A DNA stretch of 64,000 nt from Candidatus Gottesmanbacteria bacterium (lineage in GTDB: Bacteria; Patescibacteriota; Microgenomatia; UBA10105; UBA927). Shown in pieces: positions 9,086-53,700 of the stretch. The stretch lies in assembly GCA_963790805.1 (NCBI GenBank), contig CAWBPL010000002.1:576696-640695 (forward strand), read 5' to 3'. A model generated the notes under the pieces. The model was not told where the DNA came from. It did not search any database and saw nothing but the letters and a program-made list of their open reading frames with translations. The first letter of the stretch is position 1. Each line of letters starts with the position of its first letter. Both the position numbers and the translations under genes were made by a program.

Positions 9086-9111
9086 TGATAGAAATATAGC
9101 ACAAACAGATA

Positions 9112-18306
<9,195 letters not shown>

Positions 18307-29700: not shown

Positions 29701-32700
29701 AGCAAAAGCGTATGGCGTGTCGGGAGACAAAATTAATCAGGTTCTTGATCTTGTCGACACAGTCAACCGGTTTGCAAACGGCCTGACGCTTTCAATGGAA
29801 GATAACTTTTTCCGCGCAAAAGATACGAATGGCCGGCAGTCGACGATTCCGGGAAACGGCGGACAGGCGAGTACCGGTCAGACATATAACTCCCGCATGC
29901 AGGCGGTTATGGAGGCGGTTGGCGCAACAGCATACGGAGAAACACCGGACTTTAACGACCTGAGCGTCGCGCCGGATCAGGCGTACCGGTCAGGATTTCA
30001 TGATGTCGTTGCTGATGTATTGGGGTATGCCAACGGGGCGGTGCGCGCTGTTACCGGTAACATTGCTGAACAGGTGGGCGTTATAACCAACTCATACCAG
30101 ATGGGCGCTTCGCGCGATACGACGGGGACGCTCGCTAAAATTTTCGACGGCACCAACGGCAATCCGCCACGGCTTGCGGCAGACCGGTCATACCATGCTG
30201 CTTCTGACGATTATCTCAAAGTTATTTCCGACATGAAATCAAAGGGACTTTTGGATAAAAGCGGTACGTCGGGTTCGTATGATTCCCACGGAAATGCCAA
30301 GTTTGTCCTTGCCGGAGCCCTCAATATCAGTCCCATGGAATTTGCCCGTCAGCAGCAGTTATCCGGTCATTATGATGCCAACACGACGTGGTTTGTGCAG
30401 CAGGGCGGAACGGATTATTATGCAGTAAAATTCAACGCTGACGGATCCGTTGCCTCTAATGAAGTAGTACAAAATGCAACCGGCAATTCAGGTACCATTG
30501 CCTCTCGCTATCGAAGCGGTGAAGAAAATCTCGTTACCGTAATCGGACTTGGAGGCGCAACGGGAGACAATATTCCGACGCCGGAAAATGTACCGGGTAT
30601 CACGGTTACGACTCCAACGACGGCGCAAGGCGTCGTGCTGCAGGCGGCAAGCCGGCTTGATAGAAGCGATTGGGTGGCAACGCAATATCTTGTGGTTGTT
30701 GATGATGGCGTCCCCTCATATACCGGTAAGCTGGCAAATGCCAAGATGAGTACAGCGGATTTTGCAGGTTTCAGAACGTCTATCGAAGACACGCAGCATA
30801 ATCTGGAACTTCTCAATACCGCGCAGGCCAATACCTTAGGTCTTCAATCGGCGGCAGCCCGCCCGCTTGCCGATATCGTTACGCGGTTTGGCTCGATGAG
30901 CGATCCGGCGGCGCAAAGAGTTGCCGACTGGGCGTCACAACAGCTTCTGGAGCTTTCCTCGTCGAATCAGGGAAGGGATTTGCGGCTGGATGAGGGATCA
31001 GGAAGTCAGACGCTTGATGCGAGAAACCGGCAGTTTGAAGGTTTGGTGCAGCAGTACCAAAAACTTTTCAGCGATCCTGCCAATGAGCAATATTTATCTC
31101 TTATTCAAAAAACCAGTCCGGATTTGTATGCGCGTCTTACCAATAACCGCGATGCAATGAACGGTGCGACACCCGGCCGTGCCTTAACGTATGCAGATGA
31201 TAACGCAACGATTTCAAATACCGCTAAAGATGCGCCGCTTCTTGCGACGGATCTTTCTGATTATCGCCGTATCCACAATACAGTCGTTCAGGCGAAATCT
31301 GAAGCGCAAACGCTTGCCGGAGACGGCAGTCCTGATATACATCCGGTGGTTCAGGCGGCGCAAGCGCAAACCCAAGCTCCCGCGACGGGATTGAAAGGTT
31401 TCATCTCGCGCATCCCCGGCATCGGACAATCGCTTGCAAACACCCTGTTCCCGACAAAGTTTGTGCTTTCCGCCGTGCCATCGCTTGACGATGACATGAG
31501 CTCATCCGCCCTGCCGACACTCAATATCGTGCGTTCCTATGCTTCCACCCAAGTTCGTACGCAGGCAATTACGGCGGCCATCCCGATTATGACTCAAATA
31601 ATAAAAGGGACGACGCCGATTACCGCTCAACAGCGTGCAACATTTATAAGCGGTCTTGCAGCCGCAAAAGTAGGTTTGGATGCAGCGCAGCAATCGCTTG
31701 CACGGGCCCAGCAAGCTGCTGCCGGCACGCAAACATTGACGGGAGCTGATTTAGCCGGAAAACCACTGGCAGCAGGGGACCAGATCGGCGGCGTTAAAGT
31801 ATCAAGCCGCGGGAAAGTGATCCGCGTGTATGCCGACGGCCGTGTAGATCAGGGAGGCGTCACTAATTTGCCGGTTGGTGATCCAACCCAGTGGCAGACA
31901 TTTTATGTCCAGCCGACAGCAACGATACCGAAGCTCACGGGCCGAAAACAGACTGTTCTCAACCGTCTGCAAAATGCCGATAACATTATTGAGATTACTC
32001 CGACAACCACCGTCGCCCGCGCAAAAGCGGTAACTGCACAATCGCAACAGGACCTCGCCGTCGCATCCGAGGCAAGCAGTCGTGCAAACGCACAATACCA
32101 ACAATTTGTTAATGCGATGGGTGATGATATATCAAAACGGATCGTTGGCGTTTTCGGACAGACATCAGTTGATCTGACGCCCCTTCACAGCGCGGTGTCT
32201 GATTATGAAACGGCTCTATTAAATGCTGCGACAGACAACAGCAATCCGCAGGTTACCACGGCAATGCTTCAGGCAAATATTTCGGCTGGAGTGCTTGATA
32301 CGATGAATCAGGCATTGGCAAGTGCGAAAGCGCAGGTTCCTGCGGTTGCCGCAAAGAGCGTTGACGATCTGCGTCAGGAAATATTGGGGGATTCGACAGA
32401 CGCGATGCTTGCCGTTGCCCGAGCGGCTGCGACGCAGGTTTCCAACATACCGACGCCGGACTTAAGCGGCATCGACCGATCCGGCAGCGTGACACCGAAA
32501 TATACATTTAGATCTGTTTTGATAAATTATGTTCTCTTCCCGTCTCCATGGAATCCGAAGTGGTCGCCGGCGGAGAAAGGCAGACAGGTTGCGGCCATGG
32601 TGACGCGATGGGTGGCAACCGGCGGAATAGGTATGGTTGTCGATATGTCCCATTATGTGATTGATGGAGTATTCTTGGGTAACACAGCGTCATCGCAAAT

Positions 32701-35700
32701 GAGAGGAATATTAAACGATTCGCGAATAGGGGGCGTTTCTTCAAAGGGTACAACTCCCGCCGTCGTATCGCCGGATGCGGCACTGGCAAAACTCAAAGAT
32801 TCGCTCGCAGCAGGCAATAGTCCCGCACAGGCAATCCAAGCAGCCGGAGGATACAAAGCGGTCTACAGTGCGCTCCGGTATATGGAAAATGCAAATAGAG
32901 ATGCTGACCGCGCAGTTATTATGGACCTCCTTCGAAAAGACGTTGCCAACCGGTTTGCACAAGCTACCACCAAGACAGTCAAAGCCAACGTTAAAGGCCA
33001 ACGGATGATTGATGCGTTTATAGCCTATGAACTTGATTCGTTCGCACCAATTTCGACGACCGTGGCGCCGGTGCAGCCCGCATTTTTCGCACGCGTCGCT
33101 GCCACAGTAAGTAATTTTCTCGCAAGAGCGCCTCCTGTACGGTGGGTTTTGGGAGTCATAGGTACAATCGTAATAATCGTAGGAATACTTCTCGTCAGTC
33201 TGCCCATATTTGGTCATCACGCGCCTGTAATACAGGGAACCAATCAGACAACGACTCTCGTAGCAGAAAAGACGGTGACGCAATCTCCGCAAGACGCCCT
33301 TACCGCGCAACTGAATTTCGCCAATCAAACGTATACTCTAAACGGCGTATCTCAAGCACCGGAAGCGAAAGCTCCGACAAGCGCGACAGCATCCCAAATT
33401 TCTTTGGCAGGAGTCCCTGATGCGGCAACTGCTGCGTACGTGGAATCCGTTCTGAACGGGCCGGGCGGTACGGTTGACCCCAGCCAAATTCCGCCGCTCA
33501 CGTACGTAAACGGTGCGGGAGACACAATAACCGTACACTTTTCAGCAGACAGCGAGCCGATTGAAGCCTACGAGATTATTGATTTTCAAAATGCGCTCAT
33601 TAAAGCCGGTCCGCTCTATAAAGATTTAAGCGACGCCGACGAGATACGGCTTACCAAAGTTCTTAAAAATACATTATCAGGGGTCAAAGGTACCTATGCC
33701 GATTCGGGCGTGGATTTAATAAGCGGTAAAGAAGTAAAAAGCATAAGATTTACGAGCGATTATGCAACAAATATTTCCCAACTGAACGACCCGCTGAGCC
33801 GTCAGGACGAGGCAAATTTGTCTCCGGTTGCATCGCTTGTTCATGAAATTATTCATTTGACCCAGACGGTAAGAGGCAGCGACGGAAAACTCCACGATTC
33901 CGACAGGTTTGCCAAGTTTCAGGAAATATTTTACGGACCCAATGCTGTTGCCGAACTGCCGCCGACTGCATACGACCGTACGTGGACGGGAGATCAGCAT
34001 CGGATGGCTATGGAAGATGAAGCCGATACGTTTGCTCTCGATGCGGCAGATCCCTCGCTATTGCAATCGATTGCGCCGAATCGATCTGAATTTGCCCAAT
34101 ATATTATGAATGGCGGGGATCCGAGCACGTTTACGTTAAGTGCCGTCGCGCCGGCGGCACCGGAAGCTCAGGTCAACGCACCGGTTGCTGCGAATCCTTC
34201 GGCCGTATCCGATTTAGATTTCACGCACGTTCAAACTCCTGACCAGCTACAGGGTGCACCACAACAGTTTTATGGCGGGATAGGCAATTTCGCAACTTAC
34301 GTTTCTCCATCAAACGCGAACATACAATATCACGTCATGAAAGTGGACATGCATCAGAGCGGAGTGAGTGTTTTGGTTACCCCTGAAACCATGCTCGGTA
34401 TGAAAACTTCGGTATTTGTCGATACGTACGCGCAAAACGGAGTTAAAATCGCCGTCAACGGCGACCAGTGGGTCCGCGGCAGTAATCCGATTGTCATAGG
34501 CGGATACGCAGCATCATACGGAAAGACGTACGGAACACGCGGTAAAGAGGGTACATTGTACATAGACCAGCATAATAATTTTTCCCTTGATTATCCCGGC
34601 AAAGGAAATGAATGGATGGCGATTTCGTTTAACCATCTCCTCATAAAAGACGGGCAGGCGCAACCTGTTAGTAATATTGACACAGAACCGCGGACACTTA
34701 TTGGTGTGACGAAAGATGGGAACATTATCCTTATTGCGGTTGACGGACAGGAGCAGGTGAGCGGGATGACCTATACAGAGGCTCAAAGAATTCTTCTTGA
34801 GCAGGGGGCGTGGATAGGGGTTATGGTTGATGGCGGGTCTTCAACAGCTATGGCGGCACTGGGTGACAACGGAAAAGCGGAACTCCTGAACACTCCAAAT
34901 AATGACGGTGTAACCGAGGAGTCATACGTCGCAAATCAATTTGGCATCGTCATTAATTCGCCGCTCGCAAACGTTTCTTCAAACAATTCAGCCCAAACGG
35001 GGACGGCGGCTACCGGCCAGAGCGAGCCTGCCAATCAGGCTGCACCCGTGTCACAACCCGCACAGACACAACCCCTTATCGCCAATCCGAAAACACCGGC
35101 CGATCGGGCGGTGAACGTATTTGGTGGCGCTCTCAATAATTGGGAAGATTCGCCAGACTGGAAAACCACACCGCCCAGCACCGTCATTAAACAGGTATTA
35201 CAAACTCCATCTGGTCAGGAATTTGCCGGTGCTCTCAATGATCCGGAGTTTGTCTCTGCACTCAACGCGCTTGATAATCAGTATTTGGCCAAACCCGGCA
35301 GAAAAATAGAGTGTGTAGGGTTTGCACAGTTTCTTGCCAGTACATTATTTCCGCCCAAAGCGATGAATATCGGCGGAGCAAATAACGGGGCGGGAATTGC
35401 GAAACAGCTTGTCGGTAATCTGGGAAATAGCGCAAGCGATATCATAAGCGAGAGCGATTATCAGGTGGCGCGCGTTACAAAACCCTCCGACCTCGTTCCC
35501 GGACATTTTTACGTTGTCTATAACAACGGGACAGATGGCCATGTAGGATATATTTTGGATAATGACGGAACAGAGGTTACGGAGGTAAGTGCGAATTTTG
35601 ACCTCGACGGCAAAATAGAAGTGCATACGTTAACGTACGATCAGTTCGTCGCCCGCTATGGTGCGATGAGCAGTAATCCCGCACAATCGCAATTAGCTCT

Positions 35701-38700
35701 CCTTATACCATTCAGCGAGAATGCCCAACAAATCCTTGCAAATAGCGCCGCCGCTTTAGGGTCGGCTTCCAATGCATCGTCACCCATTTCTCCTGCTGTC
35801 CTTTCTCTCCCGTCAACGCCTGTTACCCACACCGTAAACATGGACATAAGTATTCCCGCGCAGTATGCGTCAGCGCGTCAGGTTGCCCGAAGCGAAGCAC
35901 CGAAAGACGGATCCGAGGGAATTGTTCTTACCGATCACGATGAGTGGGCGCCGCTTGCGCCGGCGGACACCCCGTCATGGGCGTTAAGCCGAAATGCGCA
36001 GACGACACGGCGCGTATTGGAATATCTCCATATTAACCAGTCGACGCGATATCAGCCGGCTTCAGGCGAGACATTTTGCAATATATGGGCAGGGGATGTG
36101 ATGCAAATGCTGGGCGTCCCGCTCCCGCGATGGTATTTCAACCCTGATACAAACCAGAAAGAAAAGACGACTGCCAACTGGCTCTACGCATGGCTTCAGG
36201 ATCAGGGCCCGACAGGTGGCAAGGCGGCCGGATGGGAAGAGGTAACGGATCCCGTGTTATTCCAGCAATTGGTAGATGAGGGAGTTCCGGGTTTAGTTGC
36301 AGCTCCGGATAGTCCGCACGGGCACATAACACCCGGCGCACCGACAACCGCTACGGCGAAAGGTGAAACAGTTGGCGGAGTATTTTACCCCAACGTGTGG
36401 TCCGCAGGTGAAACGATTCAAACGGACGTGAGCGCATATCAGGCGTTCCAGAATTCGCGCGGTCTTACGTCAATGAAATTTTTTGTCAACAAAGGATATA
36501 CAAAATATGTAACACCAGTTCAGGGTTCCTCCGTCGGCCCCATTGCGGCGTTAGGCGGATTACTGCAGGGATTGGGTGCAAAACTCGGCGGTAAGAAAGC
36601 GGGAGGACAACAGGCGACAACGGGTACAACCGGTACGACAGGAACCACAACTCCTCCGGCTCCAACGACGGGCGGTGCTGCGGGTACAACCGGTCCTGCC
36701 GACCTTTCGAAAGAATTAGAGCAGGCCATTGTTGACTACCTTATGACCTATGATCGCAGCGTCCTTCGGACATTTTACCACGGAACGACGGAGGAAAAGA
36801 GACAGGTGGCTCGTGACGTCACCAAACAGATAACGGCAGCGCAAAATATCATTTTTGCTGTAGAACAGGTCGCTGATAATATTGAACGGACGATCCGTCC
36901 CGGTGCTCCTTTACCCAGAACTCCTATTAATCCGAATCCTCAGCCCGGTCCAGTCAATAATCCGAATCCGTTTAGGCCGCCGCCCGGTCCGCGTAATCCG
37001 CCGCCTGCTCCCGGTCCGGTGACCGCCTCTGTGGCGCAGGCGCAGAAAGAACTGAATGCCGCAAAACAGCAGCTTATAGCGCTGCAAAAGCAGCAGGCCC
37101 TGCTTCTGACACAACAAAAACAACAGATTGCAGATGTGAAGGCAAAAGATGCGGCTCTAAGATCCGTCAATGACGATCTCGTAAACAAACAGAACGCTTT
37201 TGGCGGATATGTTCCCACGCTTGCCCAGCTCCAAACAAAAATTGATGATCTTAGTGCGCGAAGCGCAGATCTTAGCCAGCAGATTGTACTTGCAGAGAAG
37301 GGCGCAGCAAACACGAAAAATCCTATTCCGCCGGTGAAAGGTAAAGAAGTGCCGGAAGGATCACAGCTGACGCTTCCGCCCCGCGGTACCACATGGGTTT
37401 TCGGGTCCGGTACTGATGCGGATGTGGGTATAGCAGCCGATCAGGATGTTTCTCCCCGACACGGAAGGATTGTGAATGACGACGGCATTTATTACGTTAT
37501 CGATGGTGACGGTAAAAAAGCATCAACGTACGGAACGAGCGTTTACCGTTACGGAGAAATTATCGATGTTAGTTCCAACGCGCGCACACAGCTTCATGCC
37601 GGCGACATTATCTACATGGGAGATAATGGCGTTCAGATGCTCTTCACCGGCACATCGCTCAAGGGTCCGTATTATAACAACGGATTGCCGATGGAAGGAG
37701 CACTGCCTCCTAACAGTCAACTGGTTTCGCTCGACGGGAAAGTGCTGCTTGCTAACCCCGCCAGTTATGAGGATGTTGTTGCGTATCTCCATTCGATTAA
37801 TCCTGAAGATGGGATGACGTTTACCCTTACGTTAAACGGGGCAGATGTATTCCACATTACGTTTGACGGAGCAGTCCGGCTTCTTGCCTTACCCAAGCGG
37901 CTCGACAAAAATCCCTATAGGCCGGATGAGTCTTTTGCGGTAAGCGGTGAGGGGTATATCGGCCGCGAAAACTTGAAGATTGATCTCGCGTATAAAGGTG
38001 AAGTTTCCGTTGAGCATGTGCACTTCACATTGACCCGCAACGGAATTATGACGGTGAGGGATGATAAATCTACAAACGGTACGTGGCTGAATAATGTGAA
38101 AATGCCCAAAGGTACGGTGCAGGTGCTTTCTGCGGGCGATATTTTACAGCTCGGACGGCAGGGGAAGATTCAGTATGTCGGCGTGACCAAAGACGGAAAA
38201 GCAATTTTTCTTGACCTTGTCAAACATAATAATACGCAAAACAGCGGATCGGAAGATGAGACTGACGGGAAAGCAATCAGAACGATTAAAACGGATAATG
38301 ATGCGGTCAAAATGATGAAATCCGTCCTTCACTTCACCGACCCGATGGTGGAAGAAGCAGCACTACAGCAACAGGCGACAGTGATATCAATACGAAGTGG
38401 AATTTTATCCAGCGCGCAACAGAGTGCCCTGCAGGCACGTTTGCAGGCCATGCAGGAAAGCTATCCCTCTGATGTGCGGCTTCAGGCGTTAACAGTATCC
38501 AGTCTTATCAAGCCGGAATATCAGCCGATACTTTTGTATCTCGTCGGCCGTGACGTCTGGCGCAGGTCTACAATTGCCGATCGCATTTTAACAAAACAAA
38601 AAGGCAGGCCCGCACGCGTTTCGGATGCGCAAACCAGAGCCGAAGTCCACGATATGTTAAATAGCGCACAAAAGCTCATAACCGACAAGGTGAATGAGAT

Positions 38701-41700
38701 GGCCGGCAAAAATACAGATATGGCGAAAAAAGCCGGTGTCAATTACGCATACGCAACGCCGACGAATGTCGCGTACGTGGGTTTTGAGACTATGGCGATA
38801 GGGTATAACGAAGAAGCAAATGTTCAGGGATTCGCGATGCGCGACTATAACATACTCAAAGTAACCGATCTGCCGACAAACGATCCCGCACGTGCGCTTC
38901 AACGGATTGCAGAAGTACAGGCGCATGAGGCAGGACATCTGGATCAGGATAAAAAGAACAAAATGAGGCCGAACGTATCTCCGGATGATCAGCAGTTTTT
39001 GGGAAGGAGTCCTTCGTATTGGGAGATTACTAATCAGTGGTGGCGGGTCCTTAAAGTCGTCGGTATGAACAATGACGTTATGCATAGTTCGTATGATGAA
39101 GGCGCGCGGGCATTTGAACAGCTGGTAAACGATTTGACAAGACGAATGGCGCAGGCGGGCCAGAACAATCAACAGGCGCTTAAAGCCGCTATTTTGTCTG
39201 CCACCTACGGGGATGTCATTAAGCCAAACGGGCAGACAGGAATCCGGACGCTGTATGATCAATATTTCGGACGCGGCGCATTCGATGTGCGCATAAGCCA
39301 GTATGCAGATTATTATTACTACAACAAAAAGGGCAGGGCGAAGGTAAGTGCCGAAAGTACCGGTTCGACGGCACCGCCTCCTGCCGCTGCCAGCGCGCAA
39401 CAACCGCCGATCGTCAATGCCGATGATCTTCGTGCGGCGAAAAAAGCGGTGGATAACGAATTAGCTCAAACGAAAGCTCTTTTTACACAAACACAGCAGG
39501 AACAGACTCTGGCGAATGACGCAGTAACTGCGGCACAAAAAGTTAAAGATAAAGCACTAAAGCTCTTTAATGATGCCGCTGCCCTCCATAATCAGACCGT
39601 CACGGATCTTGAAGCGATAAATGCGTCTATTGAAGATTTACAAACAAATACCATACCGCTTCTTACCACCCGCCTTTCACAGGCAGTCGCCCGTCAGGAT
39701 GCCATTACCGCATGGCAGGATGTGTGGAATGATATTAAAAAACTGGATCGGAATGCCAAACCGGCTATTGTTCTTGCAAACGCCGGTGCCGCCGAGATTC
39801 GGGCTGACATTCTGACTCTTCAGGCACAGCTGGAGCAGCTGAAAAATCCGACACATGAGCCCGCTTGGCGAACCAATGTTCTTTCCGGAATGAGTCCTCA
39901 TGATCAGGCAGCTATAACGACGCTGAGGGGTATCTTTGGCGCCAAGACGGGTCGTCAAACGTGGTATTACGCAGGATCCGGAGCAGATATTGCCCCCATA
40001 TTTATTGCTCCAGCCAACACAGAACATCGGTTTGTAGATATTGTTTATGATTCAAATCAACCTTTGTTTCATACTCCCTCAGCTCAGGAATTTACCGAGC
40101 CGTTTAGTAAAATTGGCGCAACTGAAACGGTGTCATCGAATTGGGTTGATGCATGGAAAAATAAGAAACAAACCATCAGCTTAGACGGCGGAACAACAAT
40201 TCAACTTGTCGGAGGTAACGTTCAGGATAAAGCGACATCACCAGACTCTATCGATGTTATTTATACAAATGATCTTTCGGCATCGCAAGGTCCTGACGCA
40301 TTGATCGCTCTTAAAACGGACGGGTACTATGTTGAAACAGATACATTCGATATGGGTTCTTCGAAGATCAAGTTGCTGGGCCTTGGTGTTAATATTGAAG
40401 ATTTAGGATTTAAGAAAGTGAAGACGGTAAAAATAGATGAGTTGAGCTTTCCGTCGATAGGGAAGATACGAGCCACAACAGACGGAAAACCGGTGTGGGT
40501 TCAGGTATATCAAAAATCCCGGTCATTCACTCCAGAAGAGGAAGACATAATTCAGCTTGACGCTTCGGTAAGAGATATAAATGCTGCACTTAGTAATTTG
40601 GTTTTCGTCACTGCATCTCCTAACACTGCTCCTGCTGCCATAAAAGATGCGGAACAAAGTTTAACAAACGCATTTCAACGGTATTTGTCTCGTGTACAAA
40701 ATTTGAAAGGGAATAGCGCCGCGGTTGCACAAAAAGTTCAGGCAAAAATGGACGAATATTTCCCTGCCAGCGGATCGATGCCGGATATTATAAAAAATAA
40801 TACTGGTTCCGCAGGTCGACCGGCAGCAACGATACTTGCCCGCTATAAACGCGCGTGGGAAATTTATAACGCGACATATGTGACCCCCAGTAAAACACCG
40901 TTAACAGCCGACGCGGCAGTTAACGCGGCCGTTGTGAACATCGAAAATAACTCGGACCAGAGTAATGCGGCGGCGATTATTACAGCGATTAATGCGAAGC
41001 TTCCGAAAGGCGGGAAACTTACAGACGTGCAGGAGAAACAAATAAAAGCAGAAGTCGCATGGGCTATTGCGGCACGCCGCTGGGCGAAGATTCCAGATGA
41101 CATCCAAAAGCTTGCCGGTACGCCGAACAAAGATTTGTCCGACGCAGGGATTGCGACATTTGAAGCGCTGGTTGCCAACGGGGAGCAGCTTTTAGCCCAG
41201 CAGAATGCAAAACCCGTACAAACCGGTAAATATCAGGTTGTGCTGACGGCAGATGCGCCGAAAGTGAAAGATAAAATTCACCTCTTTACCTTCGGGATAG
41301 AGAACGACGGGATAATCATCTCAAGTCCGGCCAAGGGGAGTACGGTGTGGACAGTTGCGAATACAAAAACTCCCAATAATCCGATATATGTTGATCAATC
41401 CCAATTGCTGCCGAAAACCAGTATTCCGCCGGTTCCCTCGCTTGCCGGTATTCCGGTTGATGCGTTGGGGAACACGAACCCGATCACCAAAGGCTCGGTT
41501 GTGACGCTTAAAAAATATCGCGGACAGGCCAATGTTAAAGTACAACTCGGCGATATATATAAAAACCTAGCGAATTTTACGGTTATCGAAGGACCTCTTA
41601 AAGGCGACTGGTCAAGTGCGAATTTCAAAGACATGACCATCGTATCGTATGCGCCGCGCGAGAGTGTCGCAAAGGCGTTTACGGATACGATGAATACTGC

Positions 41701-44700
41701 TGATGTGAAAAAAGCATACGTCCGTATCGCCAAAGCAAGTATAGCGCTCGGTGACACGGATGCAGTAACCCGTGCGAAACTTGCGGTGTTGTTTTTTAAT
41801 GATATAGATCTTCTTACGGCCATAAATACAGCCGCAAAGAAACCGCTTTACGCCGTCGAGCGGGTAGCACTTCTTCCTGCGGCGCTTGATTCCATCATGA
41901 CGGCTGCCCGGGCGACTCCCTCTGGTCCTGCCTCCATAACCGCTCCGGCAACTATTCAATTGCGTGGCAGTACGTATAACAAAGGATCGGCTATTCATGA
42001 TGCCACCACGCTTGCGTATTCATTGTTGACTGCACTGAATCTGAATAGTGCGCCGGCAACCCTTCAGGTCGATCATTTCCAGACTGTTGGCGCAGCGCTT
42101 ACTCTTGATTCATTCTTATCCCACACAGAGCCGTTTACCGCCGGAGAGATTCAGCAAAATATAGCCTTTAAGGCGGTTATTGAAGAATACGGTGCCGGAG
42201 ACGTTGCGCGCTTCAGTGCGCCGGACCGGCAGAATGAGTTTATCGTCATGGTTACGGCGCGGGACGCAAGCGGAAATGCAACGGCGTGGCAGGTCTATAT
42301 AAAATCTTCAACGCCGAGCGGCGGAGGTACTGGCGCAGGGGTGGGTGGGGGAACTACCGGCGGGGGTACAGGAAAGAGCGCACCCGCGGCGAAGAAAGCT
42401 CCGGCAAAACCCGCTGCCCCGAAAGCCAAACCCGCCCAGCCGGTTATTTCATCCGGCGGCAGGATGACGGCGCTGGGCGTTGGGATGATATTGGTGAATC
42501 GGGATGACGGAACGCAGTATTTGGTAACAGATACCGATTCACAAAATACTCATTTGCAAAATACTGAAGTCGGAAAACCCACGACATTTAATACCGCCTC
42601 GCTTCTAACATCTTTGAACACAGAGGGCGGCACGTGGTTTGTCGAGCAACCCATAGCGAGTAAATTCATAACAAGTCCAGCGAAGAAGGCGTCGTTGAAT
42701 GAGTTGCGAACATTAACAGATAGTATGATATCTTTTGGATTAGAAAGTAATAGTGGATTAAAACCATTCACCGCAACGCTTGCAAAGGCTCAAAAAACAG
42801 GCGCGACTGAAGGAGAAGTTCAGGTAAAACTGCAGGCGCTCCGTCAAAAATTGATATCCAAGAGAAACAGCATTCTGAACGGATTGACTCCCAACACGCT
42901 GAAAAGTCCGCGAGCGAAAAAGCTCTACCAAACATTCCTGTTTGCGCTTATTTCCCAACAGCCGGCGCTGGGTACGCTCCTCGGGATTGATGACTCGCTT
43001 CCTGATATCGTGTCGTTGTTGCCGAAGATCAAAGCGCTATCCGGTGACGCGGCTTTGATGGCGCAGGCGGCGCAAACAGTGATCAGCGCTCATCCCAATG
43101 AAGTTTCCCAGTGGATAGACTTATGGAAAAAAGAAGTAGATACGCTTCAAAATCCTCCGGCCGCCAAGCCCGCGGCGCCGCAATTACCGCTTAAACCCAC
43201 AATGAGTTTAACGGATTTTGAAGCCGCGATGACCAAGCGGATAGACGCGTTGGCTCTTCAGTATGCCGATAGTGAAACAGGAAAACCGGTTTCAGGAGCA
43301 GAGCTTAAAACGTGGTTTTCATCCAACGTATTTCAAAGTCGCGGGAGCACTCTGGGAACGGAATTTGATGCGCAATTTGGGGCTGATACGCCGAAGAAGA
43401 CGAAACAATCAAATCTCTATCAAAGCCGGTTTGTTGACGCAGTCGTGAAGTATCGGCAGATACCGGTAGACCAACAGAAAGCGTTAGACATGAGACAGGC
43501 GCTTAATACAATGATTCAGGGTCTTGAAACTACTGTGCCCGATGCAAAGAAATATTCCTCTACGGGAGTAAAAACGTCAGCCTATCAACTGACCGCCATT
43601 CTGCAGTATGTGAATGCGATTGTCGGAAATGCGACGCTTCGTAGCACACAATTGCTCTTTCATGATGACGTTATTAATCCCAATAGCGCCCTCTCTAATG
43701 ATACGAAAGCAGAGCTTCGGGGTCTTAACATGATCCAGACGATTCAGGATATGTCGGTGTTAATCAATAAAAAGACAATTACGCAGAAACGGAGCCAAAA
43801 GGCAATCGTTGATCTGGATATCGGCAGCCATACCGGAAATTCTGGTTTAGATGTATTTTCAGAATTTCTCAGTGTGCCGGTACCGTTTATTAATTCAAAT
43901 GACACTGATGTTCAGAATGTCGTAAATTTCTGGAATAAAAGAGCGGCGTTTATTCAGAGTCTTCAACAGGCAAGTAATGCGATTGGCCGTGATGTTGCCG
44001 CTTCCAAGGCAGATCTTGCCGCCAAACGGCGCAGTGTGGCGGGCAATCAAACGGCGCGGGCAAACAGAGCCGTCTTTCCCTTCCTGACCAGTTTGGACAT
44101 GGAGACTCCGAATCCGACAGCTTTTGCAACTCAGGCAGTCAGGGATTTTGATATACATAATTCCCCGTGGGCATATCTTTTGACGGAAGCCGAGCGGCTG
44201 GCGGAATACCAAAAGGCGGCGCCTATCGTTGCCCAGATTATTGCGGTCAGAACAACCGGTATCGGGGACGTCGGGGCTCTCAATCAACTGCTGTTTGGAA
44301 CGCTCGCGAATTCACCGGTGAAAGGATATTATGTGCACGCGATTCTGGATCCCGAGCATTACCATCTGGATGTGAATGGTGACGGAACGCTGACGACGGC
44401 GACCGAGGAGGATTTGCTGCGCTGGCTGGCGCTTCAGGATAGCCTGTATGACGTTGTGAATGAAGCAAAGCAGCGCGTGTCCGCATTTTTTACCTCTCAC
44501 GGTTTAACAGTTCCACAGGAAGAATTTGATCCTTCGAATCTTTCATTTTCAGTCGGCGATGATGCGGTGTTTGATGAGCAATTCATACATGATCATCCCG
44601 AAGAAGTTTCTGCAATGTATAGCGAAAACACCGGCGCCAAAATATTCCGCCAGAGTCTGGTCGCGGCCGCAAGAACTGATCCGCAGGCTTGGGAATATCT

Positions 44701-47700
44701 TATCGACGACTACGTCCATGAATTGGTGCATAGTTCATTGATGCGCAATTACGCTCCGTGGCTGACTGAACAGGCCAATGAGGGTATGGCAATTCTTCTC
44801 ACTGTCGCGCGCCGCGCTGATGATCTGTGGACGCAGGGGAAGCATGACGATGGACAGAACGGTTCCGTCTGGCAACAGGCCGAGCGGGAAGTTTTGGGAT
44901 TACCCGATTCCGATTCGCCGTATCCTGAGACAGTCGTATCTTCTTATATCAACGCATACTTTGCCTTACGATCGAGCACGTTTGGTATGCTTTTTAATAA
45001 CTCTTGGAGTACCTCCGACCGGATTAATGCAGTTATTACGTTTTTTAATGCCACAGACCAGTACCGACCGGATCAGATGGGTGCAGAAGCGGTCAGAACC
45101 GCTCTTCAAAATGCATTTATGACAGGGCTGACGTCGCATGGATTGGTGCTCGCTGAAAATGTTGCGAATACCTATTTCCACGGCGATCAGTTTGCGCAGG
45201 ACACCCCCGATACCGACACGATGTTCCGGCCTGATCGCGCCTCAACTCAAACACCGTTGCCCTATAGACAGGCTTCATCCGTCGCAGGACCTGCGACGCA
45301 GGAAATAGTGACACAGTTTCCCGGTACGAGCGGTTCGCTGAATTGGGATCAGGTCTCATTTGCCGGCGGGCAGACGAGTGTTGCACTGCGGGCGAAAACA
45401 AACATATCCGGAGATAACCGTATGCGTATGCTTGCCGCGTCAAAGATCATCTATGACGCTATGGATCAGGCGTTTGCTTCAAAAGACTGGGAAGGATTTC
45501 CGCTGACCGGTTTGGAGCATTCTCTTCTTGATGTATTTAATTCTCAGGTAGCTCCCGGTATTTTGGCGAATCTGAACGTGAGCTCAGTTACTGATTTGTT
45601 GAACAAGTATGAAATCACCGTTACGCGGCAGATGCAAACCGGCGGGAATTCCATGCAGGAAGTGGTGATTTCGTCCGTACCGACGGCGGCATATGTTGCA
45701 CGCGGCGGCACGCTGACACCGCTTCCGACAAATGCTGATATTACCCAGTGGAAAGCAAAAGTGTATGATGTGCCGTCTGACGGATGGCTCATTGTAAATA
45801 ACGTTGTACCCGCGACGACTCCTTCTGATGCCGATCAACTAGCTCGGGCGCTTAATAGTGTCGAATCGCCGCAGGATGCCGCACGTATCGTATATCCGAT
45901 GATGGAGGAGTGGTCGCCGCTGGTAACGTCATTTTTCTCAGTCGCAAGGGCGCCAGCAGCAACAGCACCAGCACCCGTCGCATCAAGCGCACCAAGTGCG
46001 TTTAGGATCGGAAATAATACGCCGGTTCGCGGAGGGAATCAATCGACGTTAGGGAGTATTTCTCCGGCCCACGCCATTCAGACAAATCACGCAACGCTTA
46101 CCATACGTGACGGCAGCCTGTTTATTACTCAAACAGGTGTATATGGCGTGTGGGTAAACGGCAAGCCGGTTGTCCCGAATGAACAGACCCCGATTGCGGT
46201 TGGCGATGAGCTGACCTTCGGCGAAGATCCGCAAACCGAAACAAACCCGCGAACCTATCGGGTTGCGATGGGGGGAGATCAAACCATTATTTTAGCATCT
46301 CAAAGTGATACGTACTACATACCGACAGCGCTGCCGATCCCTGATGAAGCGCGGTTTAATGACGGCCTTTTCAAAGGAGTCGGCTCTATTCAAAATCCGT
46401 CTGACTGGGCGAGATTTGTCTGGCTTATGCTTTCTGCAAATGGCGAAGCGGGATCTTCCGTGACACTTCAGGGAACCACCATCGGCGGAAATACATTTGC
46501 CGTGACGTATCCTGCCAGTCAACTTATCGAAAAAGCTGCAGAAATCGCCCAGACGTTTCAGCGGGGTACGGAGATTGAAATAGACGGTCCCCAAGGGCGC
46601 CTGGGCGTTATGACCATATCAGCCGGTGGCATGGTTGACATGAGCCTTGATGACGCGGCGTCGCGGCTGGGGCCGGCAAAGATGAGTATCAGCGATTTTG
46701 TTTTGAATGCAGAAGCTCCTGCCGAGGTTCATGCGATGCGCAAAACTCCATCCGCTCAGCTGCCGAAAAATACGGTTCAATCCACTCCGGCAGTAAATCC
46801 GCAAGGTGAACCGCTGTTTCGCCGGATCATAAACGCGATAAAACAGGGTAGTTGGTTCGCGCGGAAAAAGACAAGTATCACTATCGGAAGATTACAAGTG
46901 GATCCGACGAATGGATATGTTTCCGCCAAACACATCCGCTTAAATATCCAAAATAATCGTTTGTACATAACTGATTTATCGACGAACGGAACTGTCATTG
47001 AAGGAAAAAAGCGGTTAAGTACTCAAACGGGACCGGTTCCATTGGTATTGGGAGATGTTTTGGATTTATCAAATAAGGGTCAGGCGTCGAGACTGCGCGT
47101 TGATCAGTTGCCAAATGGCGAAGTACTGCTTATTAATTTAGCGACAAAATATGTCATATCAACCGGTTTAATTCTTCCTCCCATCCGGCAACAGGCCGAC
47201 GGTTCATTTATTGTGAGGACGTACGAACAAATGGGCAAAGCAGGTGATATTACGCTAGGGAGCGGTGCACCGGATACCCTGTCAAGGCTGCAGGCACAGT
47301 TTACTCGGGATGATGATGGAGCCTTGGCCATTGAAGATTTAAATTCCTCCAATGGTACATTTGTAAACGGAAAACAGATAGGGACCCGGCAGAAAATACG
47401 AAGCGGTGACACCATACGGTTTGGCGATGATCCGGATGAAAATATTTTTGAGGTTGTCGCGACTGACAATCAGTCAGGCTACGTGACGCTTCGGCCCGTC
47501 GGAGATTCCACCATTGCCGCGACAGGCAAAATTCAGGATCATTATATGTTTGAGTTGGCGATTTTACATAACCAGACAATCGGTACCAAAGGGGATGTAC
47601 ATATCGGATATGAGAAATATGTTGCACCGGTACAGGCAAAAATAACAATACAGGGCGATAACGCATTTATTGATAACGGATCATCCCAGACTCCGACATC

Positions 47701-50700
47701 GGTAAATGGTTTGGCATTTAACCGGCGACAGTTGGCTGCCGGTGACGTGGTGAATCTGGGAGGGAACGATGTAACAATACGTTTTCTCAGGGTTCAAAAC
47801 GGGGCGGCAATTTTTACCGACTCTTCAGGGTACGTATCAAATTCCAATCCGCAGGCTGAGGGGCGAAACATCCTTTCCTATAGCGAGTCTGATATTGCAC
47901 GTCGCCGGAAAGAGGGTTTAAGTGAGCAGGAGGCAGAGGATGCCCTCCGGTATGGTCTCAATTTGAGTACAGCCAGTATCACGCGCGCTGAGGAACTGGC
48001 AAAATATTTGAAAGACCGCATGGAGGAAGGTTTGTCGACCTCTGAGAAGGCTGCTCTGACGAGCCGGTTGAATTTGCCGCTCCTTCTGCGATCGCGTTCA
48101 AACGGCATTGACAGCCTTACCAGTCCTGAATTGCTCTATATAGCCGGACGAATGGTGAAACACGAAGTGGATATAGAACGTTTAACCGGTAAAACGACTC
48201 AGGAAATTATGGATGCGGCGATGAATATTGTTGAGAAACGCAACAGCGTAGCCAGTACGGTGGGCGTTGATTTGCCCGATGATTATGAAGTAGGGAATCT
48301 GGTGGGGCTGGGGACGCGTATAGCTTCAGGGAAAAAGGATACATGGTGGGGTTTGCAGGTCGGGTCAGGAGATGAATATTATCTTGCGATTGATAAAATA
48401 GCAGATTCAAAAGATCCGTTTGCAACAGCGGTTGAAATACTGGTGCACGAATGGGGTCACAGGGATCAGGCTCCGATAAATAAATCACCCAAGGGTGCGC
48501 CAACATATGATGAAGCAGGAACGCAGGCGATGCTTCTTATGGTGAAAGCGCGTATAAATCAACAGACAATGGCATTTAATTCCTATGCCGATGCTCCGGC
48601 AAACGCGTATCTGGATCTTGTAACCGAGCTGTCAGGTCTTATTCAAAGTCAGGGTAAAGACGGTCATCTGGCACTGCAGGCGGGTATCATCTCGGCGATT
48701 ACCGGACGATTTGACGGGAACATCCAATGGGAGGGACATACGTACACCGGTATACGTGCCCTCTATGACAGCTATTTTGGTGCGGGGTCGTTTGATCTTG
48801 CGATGAAGGGGAAAACGGATGCCGATCTGTATACGAAAAAGCCCGGATTGGCAACGGCTGCATATAGCCAAAATGTTCCTGTAGGAACGGTAGAACAGGT
48901 ACCCGTGAATCCGCTGGAAGCTGTTGGCATGAGCTGGATGCAACGATTCGGGAGCTGGTTTAAGATGAAGTTTTTAAACAGTTGCGGAATTGGCTTTCAC
49001 TTCCTCCCGCAGGTATTTGCCGCCGGATCGTGTACGCCAAATACTCAAAAAGCAGCACACGCTGTTGATGAGGTAACGCAAACGGCAGGGGAAACGCCGA
49101 ACCGGTATTGGTGGAACAGAATCTTGGGCAGATTCTTCGGGTATTGGGTGGCTACTGCTGAAAATTCACCAGCCCAGACAGCGCAAAATACAGCTGGCTC
49201 CACTGCGCTGGTAAATAATGCAGCTACTGTCGAATCCATTTCCCGTGACGATATCAACAATTTACTCGATCATTTTAATGATACAAACTATGTTGAAGCT
49301 CACACGGCATTGTGGACCCCGTCGGTTCAAGCAAATGTAGTTCAACTTTATCAGACGAACCCTGATGCTCTGAAATTTGCACTCACATACTATAAAGATT
49401 CTGTCGAGCTTCGTGTTGGTAATTCTGTTTTGGTAAAAAATATAGAGGACCTTGCCAACACATATACGCAACATACGGAAGTGATTCGCGAGATGGTCAA
49501 TTCCGGAGCCGGTTATTCACCGTTGATTTTAAACTGGTATTTGAATCAGACTGCTCAGGAAACAGGATTTGATTCTGAACGGTTTTTTGCATTCTTACAT
49601 GTATTAGGACCAAGGGCTCATATCATTAAAGTAAGTCAGGATCAAACAGAATCATCCGTTTGGCCTACTGCACAAAACGAAGATATTTCCTTATTTTCGA
49701 AATTGTGGACATTGTATCTTCAAAATCCGGTTGAAGTAGAAACGCTATTAAACTTATCGCCGACCGAGTTTTATGTCAAACGATCAAACATGCCGAACAT
49801 TGATATAGTTCCCGGTCAGTATTACAGCGCAAACTGGTTATTTGAGTATCTCGCGACTGATTTATCCAACGTCCCATGGAGCTTTGTGCAAGATCACATG
49901 AATTCTGGAGAAAATATAACATATCGAGATTTGGTTCGTTTAAACAAGATATACGCCAATAAAGATGATAGTTATCTTCTGGTTCAGGATGGCATTGCCG
50001 CGGGAATGCATGTATCTGCCGTTGCGGCACTTCCGAATGTTGTGGGCGGCGACCCGTATAATGGGGATAATTTTTCCGTAAAATTTGGGCCGGTTTTAAC
50101 GGATCAAATCAGTAATTTTCTAAATAATGCAGACGCATGGAATCGTTCTGATTTTTTGACCATTTTTCGGGATCCGAATTCGTACAAACTCGTCCATAAT
50201 CCAGTGGAGTCAGATCAGTGGCGTCGGATGGCGACATTGCCTACAGATGACGATGTGCTTTTTGCTGCGGCATATCCACGTCTGTACTTTCTAAAAGATT
50301 ATGAGGCGGATTTAATTGCAAAATATGGTGAAGATGGACCCATAATAAATATCCTTCAGGTGTTAGAAGAAGATCCGTCGCTCCGTTTGGATACGCATCC
50401 CGCATGGAAACTTCGCGCATTATCATACATGGATGCCTATGGCAATGAACTATCAGGAAAAGCACTCACTTTTTACAAAATGCTGCGGAAAGCCGAATTG
50501 CCACTTAGCATGTGGCCGGTATTTATCGCATACAGAAACGAGTTGTCTCAGGTGCCAATCAATTCAAAGAAGGATGCGCTCTCAGCACTTCTGCACGTCT
50601 GGGATTCGAGTGAATCCATTAAAAGATTAAAAGAATTGAACTTTACCCCGCCATGGAACGGTTTCGGAGACGATTTAACCATACAGGTAGAGACGCTCAG

Positions 50701-53700
50701 TCAGAGCGACCAAATAGCAATTGTTCGGGATACCGGTATAACCAAATATGTTCGATCTCAAGTATTTAACGATACACTATCCAAAATAGATAGTGATGAA
50801 ATGTTACAGTTCGCGAGAGATAGTATAGACTCCCGCGATGTGCCGGTGATTTTCGTGAGTTTTCAGTATTTAGCCCGAAGAAATCCGGAAGAAGCGGCAA
50901 CAAAATTATTCTCATATCTTGAAGAAAGCGACAGCAGAGTTTCCTCTGATTTAATAGGCACATTATCCAATACTATTAAGGGTAAACCTGCGATCGATTT
51001 CGGACTCAACGTATTTAACTCCAAAGTACTGAGGGCAAAAAATAGTCCCTATTACACTTCTGCAGTGCTCTTTTTAGAGAACAATCTTTCACTTCTGACG
51101 ACGCAAAAGCTTGAGGATATCATCCCCGAGGTCGTCTCGATACAAGATAACGGACAGATACCATTAATAAATCTTGCCGCAGCCATATTGAAAAAGGCTT
51201 CCGAAGGTGATGCGGATGGAAAACGGTTAGCTCCCATAGCCCGAAAGATTCTGCTTACTCGCATGGTTGTGGATAATGACGCGGTGCAAAAGAGGGCGGC
51301 AACGGAGATCATTAATTATCTCGTTGACGGAAAGCTGTTTTCTTCCGATGAAATTCAGGCAGTCTCTTGGTATTACAGAAGAACGACCGCAAATGACAAT
51401 AAGATTAGTTTGCTTATTGCATTATTTAATCACTACGGTCTATCCAATAATGAAGGTGTAAATGAACTGTTTAGCAGTATTTTGCCGCAGCAGGTTATCG
51501 GCGTAATACGTACAGATAGAGAATTTGTTAATACTCAAACTGAATTATTTTTTGATTCCGTAGTTTCCCACCCTGAAGACATACCTGATCTTGTTGCTTT
51601 ATCAGAGAGTTATAAAAAGGGGATATATGGGAAAGACAAAGATTGGTTGAGCGGGTACACACCCACACTGTTAAATCGAATTATCAATCAACGCGCATAT
51701 GCATACCGCAGTGCTATAGAACAGGCATTGACAAGCCCTGTTGTAAAACGATTCGGATCCCAGTCATCGGAGAATGCGGGAATGGTAGTAAATTTTGTTG
51801 TACAGGCAATAGAACGACCGATCTACTATCCATATGGTATAACTGCAACGAGAGAAGCCTTACCCTCTGTGCCTCAGGGAAGGTTCGGACCGATAAACGA
51901 GCGCATACTGCTGCTCAACATACTGCAATCGTATCCGGCAATTGCTACACATAAACGTTTTGATCTCTACTATGAAATAGCCAAGAGCAGGGGAGTATTT
52001 CATGGAAATGAAAACGATGTATCCAGCTTTGCAGATCTCACGAAAGAAATAAATGGTAAATTTAATCAATTTTTTACGAAAATTACCCATGGTCAGGTGT
52101 TAACCAGCGAAGAATATCAGTATTATGATTATTTTCTTTCGACAATTGACGAAAACTACCTTGATAATAGCGGATCCTTTACAGAATTAGCAAACGAATA
52201 CGGTTTACCGTCAAATACAGCTGGAAACAGGGCAGATATTTTGCAAAAAGTCGATGCACAGTTACAATCCATTCCCGTAAAAGAAACCGATTATACGTTT
52301 AATTTTCAAGCCGAAGACATAAGCGTAAGCCTGTCCGATAAGGTCAAAAAACAATTTTTGAGTTTGGTGAACGGGATATTGGCATATAACGGTGGAGACA
52401 GAACAGAGTCAATCCGCCAGAAGTTGGCAGCTGTCGATTGGACGCAAGTGGGCAAAGTTAACAGTGGTGACGCGCAGCAAAGTCAGACAGCTAAGGCGTA
52501 TCTGGTGCAAACCTTACAGGTGCCGCAGAGTATGGTGACAAGCAATCTGCCTGCGGACCAAAAAGTAACAGCCATACAAAATTATATCGCGAGATCTCTT
52601 CTTGATGATCAGGATATATTATTTATTATCAGGCAATCCTTCACTATACCTATTCCCGTCGATGTTTTTGACCGCTATAAAGACGGATTATTGACGAACG
52701 ATGAAACGTCAACATTTCTGGAGCAAATGTTACAGGCGGATACGTATGTGGATGATGGATTGAGTCAATTGGGATTGCCTGCCGAAGTCGGAGTAGCAGT
52801 AAAACGTTCAACTACGTGGTTACCGCTGGTTGCGCTTCGTAATCAGATGACGAATCAAGGACTACTAGCTCAACAGCGAGCCGAGCGAAAAAATCACAAA
52901 ATTGAGCTTGTTTTCCAGAAGAAAAACCTGCTGGACGTATGGCAGGGGAAATGTTCGGGCACATGTTTCGGAGATAAGCCCGTGTGGCTGGCGAGAAAAA
53001 ATAACCTCTTCACGATGAGGATACTGGAAGATGGCGAACTGGTGGGGAATTTATTATTTGTTGTGCAGGGGAACCGCATGATCCTCATCGGTTTTGACCC
53101 CAACGAAGCGTTTACCAAGAAGCTTACGCTGGAAAAGAAACAGGAATTTGTTGATTTAGTCATGAATCATGTTTGGGCTACGGCGCAAACAAACGGCTGG
53201 GATCTGGTTCTTGCTGAGCCCACGCAGGTCGGCGGGTTATCCAATAAAAGTGATCTGAACAATTATCTGATTAATACCTATGTGAACAGCGAGATTTCGG
53301 AAACGGTGAATGCAGAAGGGCCTTTCCATCCCGTGCACGGATATACGTTAACAACGGTTCACCCGATTATGCCAAACATGGTAACTCGTATGGAGCAGGT
53401 ATATGCGCAGGAATTTGCTCCAAAACCTGCGATAACACAGGAAAATGTTCAACCGTCGGTGAGTATAGAACTGGCGACTCCTGCGATGTGGAATTCTATA
53501 CGAAATGATGTTGTGCGGGTGGAAAATGTGACGTTTCCCGGACAGGCATTCGATGAGGGATTATTACAAGATGAGTTTACTAATCCCGATAGTATAGTGA
53601 TTATCGCCCGAAACAGTTCCGGCAACGTGATCGGGTATTTATATGCAGAGACAACCAATCAGGCGAACACGATGTATATTCCCAATCTGGCTTTGGATCC

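Follow-up and report, generated by a model that had tools for sequence, protein, structure and literature searches.

Can a single bacterial protein hold metallopeptidases together with the phosphothreonine readers that direct them to their targets, and can it do so twice? The question is raised by a 64,000-nucleotide stretch of DNA from a Candidatus Gottesmanbacteria bacterium (assembly GCA_963790805.1, contig CAWBPL010000002.1, positions 576,696 to 640,695), hereafter the window, in which two clusters of FHA domains are each followed by a module with an HExxH motif. The region that contains them (37391-48800) falls entirely inside one open reading frame (ORF) of 12,323 aa on the forward strand (20792..57763), which, according to the ORF listing and its translation, has no internal stop; residue n of this giant protein begins at nucleotide 20792+3(n-1). 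Our answer, held at somewhat less than even confidence, is that the two units are paralogous, FHA-targeted, gluzincin-like peptidase cassettes in a giant membrane-anchored multi-enzyme protein. The FHA identities, the paralogy of the HExxH modules, the conservation of their motifs, their rarity and the exclusive adjacency of the FHA domains and HExxH modules are directly supported. The alternative readings weighed below overlap, and the confidences attached to them are not intended to add up to one.

Two FHA clusters and a duplicated HExxH module

Both extended HExxHxxQ motifs of the initial annotation are present in the translation, HEAGHLDQ at aa 6045 and HEWGHRDQ at aa 9219, as are the tail motifs that the two modules share (GIRTLYDQYFGRGAFD at aa 6150 and GIRALYDSYFGAGSFD at aa 9320). 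Residues 5872-6180 and 9081-9350 align over about 310 aa with 29% identity (BLASTP, E=3e-15), so that the similarity predicted between the two regions is significant as far as the HExxH modules are concerned, and in a fragment-wise self-BLAST of the entire giant these modules were the single significant internal duplication. In Smith-Waterman alignments with shuffling, the similarity was strongest in the C-terminal halves (z=25) and lower in the N-terminal helical halves (z=4.4). Judged from the alignments, it is certain that an internal duplication gave rise to the pair of HExxH modules. The helical spacer of about 170-230 residues that had been placed between FHA domains and HExxH motif has to be redrawn. 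The distances are 245 aa from the second FHA domain (F2) to HEAGH and 217 aa from the sixth (F6) to HEWGH, and the segment is no linker: the paralogy spans it, and it therefore belongs to the duplicated module as its conserved N-terminal part.

The six FHA domains lie in two clusters, F1 and F2 in cassette A and F3 to F6 in cassette B. Each was scanned separately with the Pfam PF00498 profile hidden Markov model (HMM), and all six passed the gathering threshold of 20.7 bits, with scores of 24.7-55.2 bits, in agreement with the earlier call. An HMM trained on these six sequences found no seventh FHA domain in the giant or in any other ORF of the window, nor did a Pfam scan that covered the entire giant in overlapping pieces of 1,000 aa reveal a further one. 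Within 12,323 aa, FHA domains are thus confined to the positions just upstream of the HExxH paralogues, and the pairing is therefore non-random. Pro/Ala-rich linkers flank each cassette and, together with the exclusive adjacency, argue for discrete functional cassettes. To call six FHA domains in one protein unusual, as had been done, is fair, but the chain in question is 12,323 aa long.

The phosphothreonine-binding motifs of FHA domains, the residues of which are required for binding (PMC3162421), are GR, which closes strand 3, and SxxH and NG, which precede strands 5 and 7, respectively. Their registers in the six domains were set by the Pfam match, an alignment with Rad53 FHA1 and MAFFT. 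F1 (37382..37636, aa 5531-5615; forward strand, as are all features of the cassettes; 34.8 bits over profile positions 1-67) is degenerate, with GS, SPRH and STYGT, in which Asn is changed to Tyr. It is separated by a segment without Pfam match (mid1, 37664..37927, aa 5625-5712) from F2 (37949..38170, aa 5720-5793; 40.9 bits), which is complete and canonical (IGR, SVEH, STNGT, GD). A phmmer comparison matched F2 to Rad53 FHA1 (1g6g) with E=7e-5, including the S..H pair (Rad53 S85/H88) and STNGTWLN. F3 (46004..46237, aa 8405-8482; 32.0 bits, profile positions 16-67 only) is degenerate, with GN, QTNH and GVYGV, and is followed by the segment mid3 (46262..46861, aa 8491-8690), which matches no family and the first 85 or so residues of which weakly resemble mid1. 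F4 (46862..47086, aa 8691-8765; 37.7 bits) is again complete and canonical (IGR, SAKH, STNGT, GD). F5 (47237..47440, aa 8816-8883) has the highest score of the six (55.2 bits) and is partly degenerate, with GK, SRLQ (His to Gln) and SSNGT, and F6 (47570..47776, aa 8927-8995; 24.7 bits) is degenerate, with GT, APVQ (Ser and His both lost) and SVNGL. GR is consequently found in F2 and F4 only, SxxH in F1, F2 and F4, and NG in F2, F4, F5 and F6. The initial annotation had read the whole G-R...SxxH...NGT...GD pattern in all six domains; this was correct for the late GD, which all six keep, whereas the full set of GR, SxxH and NG is present in exactly one FHA domain per cluster, F2 and F4.

It had also been proposed that reader and protease were duplicated as one unit. 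The alignments establish this for the zincin-like half; for the FHA half, co-duplication with the HExxH module is suggestive on the sequence comparisons at hand. In its favour, F1 and F3 share the lost Arg and the Asn-to-Tyr change, mid1 and mid3 are similar with a Smith-Waterman z of 4.7 (1/300 shuffles), and the top local alignment of the F1-F2 region with the F3-F4 region pairs F2 with F4 (score 76). Counting against duplication of the whole unit, the pairwise z-scores of the FHA domains are not collinear (F2-F5 9.8, F3-F5 8.4, F1-F6 7.1, F1-F3 1.7).

Proposed phospho-dependent targeting or a structural array

In the mechanism that we favour, the canonical FHA domain of each cassette (F2 or F4) would dock on a Thr-phosphorylated partner, which could be a substrate from outside or one of the giant's Thr-rich linkers in phosphorylated form. 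The degenerate FHA domains would serve as phospho-independent spacers, as a scaffold or as interaction surfaces, and the adjacent metallopeptidase would cut either the protein thus docked or linkers of the giant. In that case the cassette would be a signalling or processing peptidase, the targeting of which depends on phosphorylation. Zinc binding, peptidase activity, phospho-dependence, substrate and compartment are what we infer; phospho-dependent substrate capture or self-cleavage is a reasonable inference. A precedent is provided by membrane metallopeptidases of the PrsW family that are fused to FHA (Zhang et al. 2012, PMC3482391) and that, like the giant on this reading, combine a phosphopeptide-binding FHA domain and an HExxH-type metallopeptidase in one polypeptide. 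They were interpreted as signalling peptidases and their arrangement was read as phospho-signal-gated cleavage. The giant differs from them in that its HExxH module is not PrsW, is without a family match and is soluble instead of polytopic, in its arrays of two and four mostly degenerate FHA domains in place of one, and in that the units are embedded twice in a protein of 12,323 aa.

About 230 aa upstream of cassette A lies a Thr/Gly-rich tract, GTTGTTGTTTPPAPTTGGAAGTT (36600-36700, aa 5270-5300). It could be a candidate phospho-acceptor region for FHA binding in cis.

Several observations, concerning first the FHA domains, then the HExxH module and finally the compartment, weigh against the cassette reading. 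Four of the six FHA domains lack the residues that define phosphate binding, and as judged from their motifs it would be unjustified to regard all six as phosphothreonine readers. MxiG-type FHA domains without the GR, SxxH and NG residues do not bind phosphothreonine (PMC3162421). No Ser/Thr kinase and no PP2C phosphatase was found in the giant or in the other ORFs of the window that were scanned. P0004, a distant homologue of the HExxH module described below, has no Pfam domain, and no FHA domain was found in the 600 aa upstream of its HExxH module; the pairing is therefore not obligatory in the family. These findings favour an alternative in which the FHA arrays are phospho-independent spacers or oligomerisation units, comparable to those of YscD/MxiG (type III secretion) or EssC (type VII), the HExxH modules act independently, and the adjacency results from the shuffling of cassettes within a giant scaffold protein without any functional coupling. 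It is further favoured by the secondary, sub-threshold matches that all six domains gave to Yop-YscD_cpl, an FHA type that is independent of phosphorylation. Such a structural role is hard to reconcile with F2 and F4, in which every canonical phosphate-binding residue is kept, a retention not easily explained without selection for phosphothreonine binding, or with the restriction of FHA domains, in 12,323 aa, to the sites directly upstream of the two HExxH paralogues. We regard it as possible but unlikely.

Multiple or degenerate FHA domains are likewise found in other membrane-anchored bacterial proteins, namely YscD/MxiG of type III, EssC/EccC of type VII and TagH/Fha1 of type VI secretion systems. 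The FHA domains of the giant are ordinary members of their family, four of which resemble these degenerate secretion-system domains: GR, SxxH or NG is lost as in MxiG, and besides the matches to Yop-YscD_cpl there are matches to TagH and FhaB, none of which reaches the cut-off. Unlike the secretion-system proteins, the giant offers no ATPase or secretion-ring context, and two of its six FHA domains are fully canonical.

Nature of the HExxH module

On the side of the presumed enzyme, the HExxH module had no significant match in Pfam, screened at E<=1, in NCBIfam, PHROGs or PADLOC, or in the PDB by sequence or profile. Neither module matched DUF4157 (PF13699), a family that the initial annotation had suggested as a check. 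The best match, ATLF, was faint (E=0.2) and ended on the HExxH motif, which is a weak hint of a family. AlphaFold2 models of the two modules were mostly helical and, with pLDDT values of 34.8 and 44.2, unusable, and Foldseek searches of the PDB with these low-confidence models returned noise (E>2). The earlier designation as zincin consequently stands at the level of the HExxH motif, and family models lend it no support. Although confidence is low, one AlphaFold2 model places strands at 130-144, a helix at 161-183 with HExxH at 174-178, and a further helix at 205-218 with Glu 207. This predicted order of strand, strand, helix with HExxH and helix with Glu is compatible with the zincin signature.

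More can be said from the relatives of the module. A full HMMER scan of 1.84 billion representative proteins yielded only four true relatives, all of them fragments from groundwater or other environmental metagenomes. P0001 and P0003 derive from one frameshift-ridden 2.5-kb JGI contig (L082) orthologous to aa 5866-6344 of the giant. Its motif reads HEGGHLDQ once one G is added to a G5 run, and it begins just downstream of the equivalent of F2. P0004 is a 1,333-aa partial "hypothetical protein" encoded on a 4-kb contig (L081) of a Patescibacteria metagenome-assembled genome (MAG) from Hainich groundwater. Scans of genome and metagenome collections gave no relatives beyond the four. Word-index protein searches gave none either, a result of little weight as one of them missed a sequence contained within its own query.

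P0004 is a fragment of a modular protein. As noted at its residues 1060-1333, a junction region of about 270 aa is repeated in it, first before the HExxH-like module and then before a different C-terminal module.

Conserved across the relatives are HExxHxxQ, a Glu 18-34 residues downstream, an [NS]SY motif and the tail GI[RK]xLY..FGxG. The downstream Glu occurs in the contexts PSYWE, PTYDE, PSYWE and SNVE, at +29, +18 and +34 from the second His, and is a candidate for the third zinc ligand of a gluzincin. With the clan MA gluzincins (thermolysin-like, M1-like, anthrax lethal factor M34) the module appears to have in common an HExxH in a helix that follows beta-strands, both of them predicted, and a conserved Glu 18-34 residues downstream, where a gluzincin third ligand would be expected. 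It differs from them in that it has no significant sequence or fold match to any clan MA family, and in its extended HExxHxxQ and GI[RK]xLY..FGxG tail, which are peculiar to the family of the giant's HExxH modules. On these motifs the module may be termed "gluzincin-like, unclassified"; its family is a very rare one.

If the HExxH modules were not peptidases but metal-binding pseudoenzymes, another kind of hydrolase or helical binding domains with a chance conservation of HExxHxxQ, the logic of an FHA-plus-protease unit would fail. The absence of a family or structure match at any threshold and the mostly helical low-confidence models speak for this, as does a likeness between the tail motif and the beginning of DUF4214, a non-enzymatic repeat. 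Arguing against it is the conservation of the HExxH motif, with its Glu intact, and of the downstream Glu in homologues that are only 25-50% identical, to which the predicted zincin-like order of strands and helices may be added. We consider a non-peptidase function rather doubtful. Membership in DUF4214 itself (PF13946), which had been brought up by the hit P0005, was rejected, as no match over the repeat was obtained. The match of P0005 is explained by the tail motif alone.

Topology, surroundings and affinities of the giant protein

A hydropathy scan of the giant reveals an N-terminal anchor (aa 53-71), one very strong transmembrane segment (aa 4119-4137) and at least eight hydrophobic helices clustered at aa 11238-12018 in the C-terminal part, whereas aa 4138-11237 contain no candidate transmembrane segment. 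Along this stretch follow, in order, an HExxH motif at aa 4351, a NAGPA phosphodiester glycosidase domain (34436-34948, aa 4549-4719; 92 bits), cassette A, an HExxH motif at aa 7976, cassette B and a GNAT acetyltransferase domain (53495-53791, about aa 10902-11000; 23.6 bits). The giant has five HExxH motifs, compared to 0.08 expected from its composition. The GNAT domain is consistent with a cytoplasmic setting of the stretch, and both this and the excess of HExxH motifs count in favour of the cassette reading. FHA and GNAT together indicate a cytoplasmic environment and NAGPA an extracytoplasmic one, and the two conflict. That a normally extracytoplasmic domain resides in the same transmembrane-free stretch as the FHA domains is the last of the observations unfavourable to the cassette reading.

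The conflict would be accommodated if the stretch between the second transmembrane segment and the C-terminal helices were a string of effector modules (zincin-like, NAGPA, FHA with HExxH module, GNAT), inserted into or presented to a host by an epibiotic cell that belongs to the candidate phyla radiation (CPR). The FHA domains would then bind host phosphoproteins, and the HExxH modules would cleave these or free the effectors by autoprocessing. Consistent with such a delivery are the mixture of a domain usually found outside the cytoplasm (NAGPA) with domains usually found inside it (FHA, GNAT), the accumulation of five HExxH sites, NAGPA and GNAT in one chain, a Hint/PT-HINT-like segment near the N-terminus (21686-22153, aa 299-454; 26.8 bits versus a Pfam cut-off of 27.7), and the C-terminal cluster of helices, which could be a translocation device. 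Giant proteins of ultra-small predatory bacteria have been proposed to sense and breach their prey (10.1101/2025.01.14.632903). Hosts of Patescibacteria use Thr phosphorylation and FHA signalling against their epibionts; Actinobacteria, for instance, fight Patescibacteria through a kinase/FHA pathway such as Esr (PMC13622651). Effector delivery nevertheless appears improbable to us: neither a recognised secretion or trafficking domain nor an immunity gene was found, the Hint match is sub-threshold, no host is known for Gottesmanbacteria, and no homology to any known toxin domain was seen. It is more improbable still, to the point of being hardly credible, that the cassettes are host-directed effectors in a narrower sense, with canonical FHA domains that would capture Thr-phosphorylated components of the kinase/FHA pathways by which the host senses the threat, the Esr pathway being an example of a target, and metallopeptidases that would destroy them. 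On that narrower proposal, scarcely credible in this part as well, entry would occur through the C-terminal multi-helix membrane region of the giant, and one protein would carry a protease weapon that intercepts phospho-signals.

MARTX and polymorphic toxins are strings of unrelated enzyme modules with linkers and autoprocessing domains. The giant resembles them in its linker-separated enzyme modules and candidate autoprocessing domains (Hint, peptidases) and differs in that it has no RTX or RHS repeats, CPD protease, recognised trafficking domain or immunity gene. With the sub-threshold PT-HINT segment as the only signal, and no toxin or immunity family found, it was not assigned to the polymorphic or MARTX-like toxins. 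The Hint-like segment is 39-47% identical in two related loci (L005 and L012, see below) and may be an autoprocessing element.

Other features of the giant were recorded alongside. Immediately before cassette A lies a Q/A/L-rich predicted coiled coil with a Pro-rich linker (37004..37351, aa 5405-5520, forward strand), which gave weak matches of the ATG16 and SMC coiled-coil type. The N-terminal anchor is directly followed, at 21100-21400, by a unit of about 33 aa (TPTLAPSYKIPNINEGCDSGYRQSGLNCT...) in three tandem copies, each of which contains a pair of Cys residues 11 residues apart. Cys pairs with close spacing are limited to aa 121-1868 and the last 300 aa. The distribution of Cys was rejected as a decisive topology marker, as aa 1869-4118, which share a side with the Cys-rich part, are likewise free of Cys. 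A CHAP/NlpC-like amidase read by eye at aa 4830-5200 was dropped; it had no Pfam or PDB support.

Is the giant gene real and at home in its lineage? Rho as encoded in the window (4431..6113) shares 60-83% identity with its counterparts in MAGs of Candidatus Gottesmanbacteria, Woesebacteria and other Microgenomates, which places the uncultured organism in that group of the CPR/Patescibacteria. On two related Gottesmanbacteria contigs (L005, CAYGFH010000002.1, and L012, JACREM010000053.1) a homologue of the N-terminal 2,100 or so residues of the giant, 33-47% identical, is located a few kb from rho. The giant gene is therefore conserved in the lineage and no assembly artefact. Both of these loci stop short of the FHA/HExxH region.

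The annotated GTG start of the giant is uncertain, and its first 100 aa contain no Met. Directly upstream of the ORF is a gene for a LysM+M23 peptidase (18706-19842, forward strand), and between the two are genes for two tRNA-Ala (19920-19991 and 20125-20198) with the anticodons GGC and CGC. On the reverse strand, a 3,060-aa protein (9112-18294) has two HTH domains of the MerR type at its N-terminus, together with collagen triple-helix repeats and Laminin_G_3, an unusual mix of DNA-binding and extracellular-type domains. Further neighbours encode an NPCBM protein and a DUF2298 membrane protein.

Among the closest parallels are giant proteins of ultra-small or predatory bacteria (the Omnitrophota giant genes of West-Roberts et al. 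2023, 10.1101/2023.11.21.568195; Burroughs et al. 2025, 10.1101/2025.01.14.632903). In common with these, the protein exceeds 10,000 aa, has transmembrane segments, and brings peptidase-like and signalling domains together with enzymes of the cell envelope, in a bacterium that is ultra-small and probably depends on a host. It differs from them in its phylum (Microgenomates/Gottesmanbacteria) and its FHA domains, a term with 0 occurrences in the West-Roberts preprint. FHA-peptidase fusions and giant multidomain proteins are thus kinds already known. What sets the locus apart is the combination of FHA arrays, with one canonical reader each, and a duplicated novel HExxHxxQ family in a 12,323-aa chain of Gottesmanbacteria. 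In the papers searched we found no description of that combination, of FHA arrays or of this HExxH family in CPR giant proteins.

What the cassettes mean depends on the HExxH module. Were it inactive, the locus would add one more case in which a giant protein has accumulated domains, and its value would be mainly descriptive. Were it active, it would represent a new and extremely rare metallopeptidase family, with four relatives among 1.84 billion representative proteins, and one wired to phosphothreonine readers in a member of the CPR, the signalling and host-interaction biology of which is almost unknown. The presence in each cassette of one canonical FHA domain beside degenerate ones provides a testable handle on how giant multi-enzyme proteins in ultra-small bacteria might be targeted or processed.

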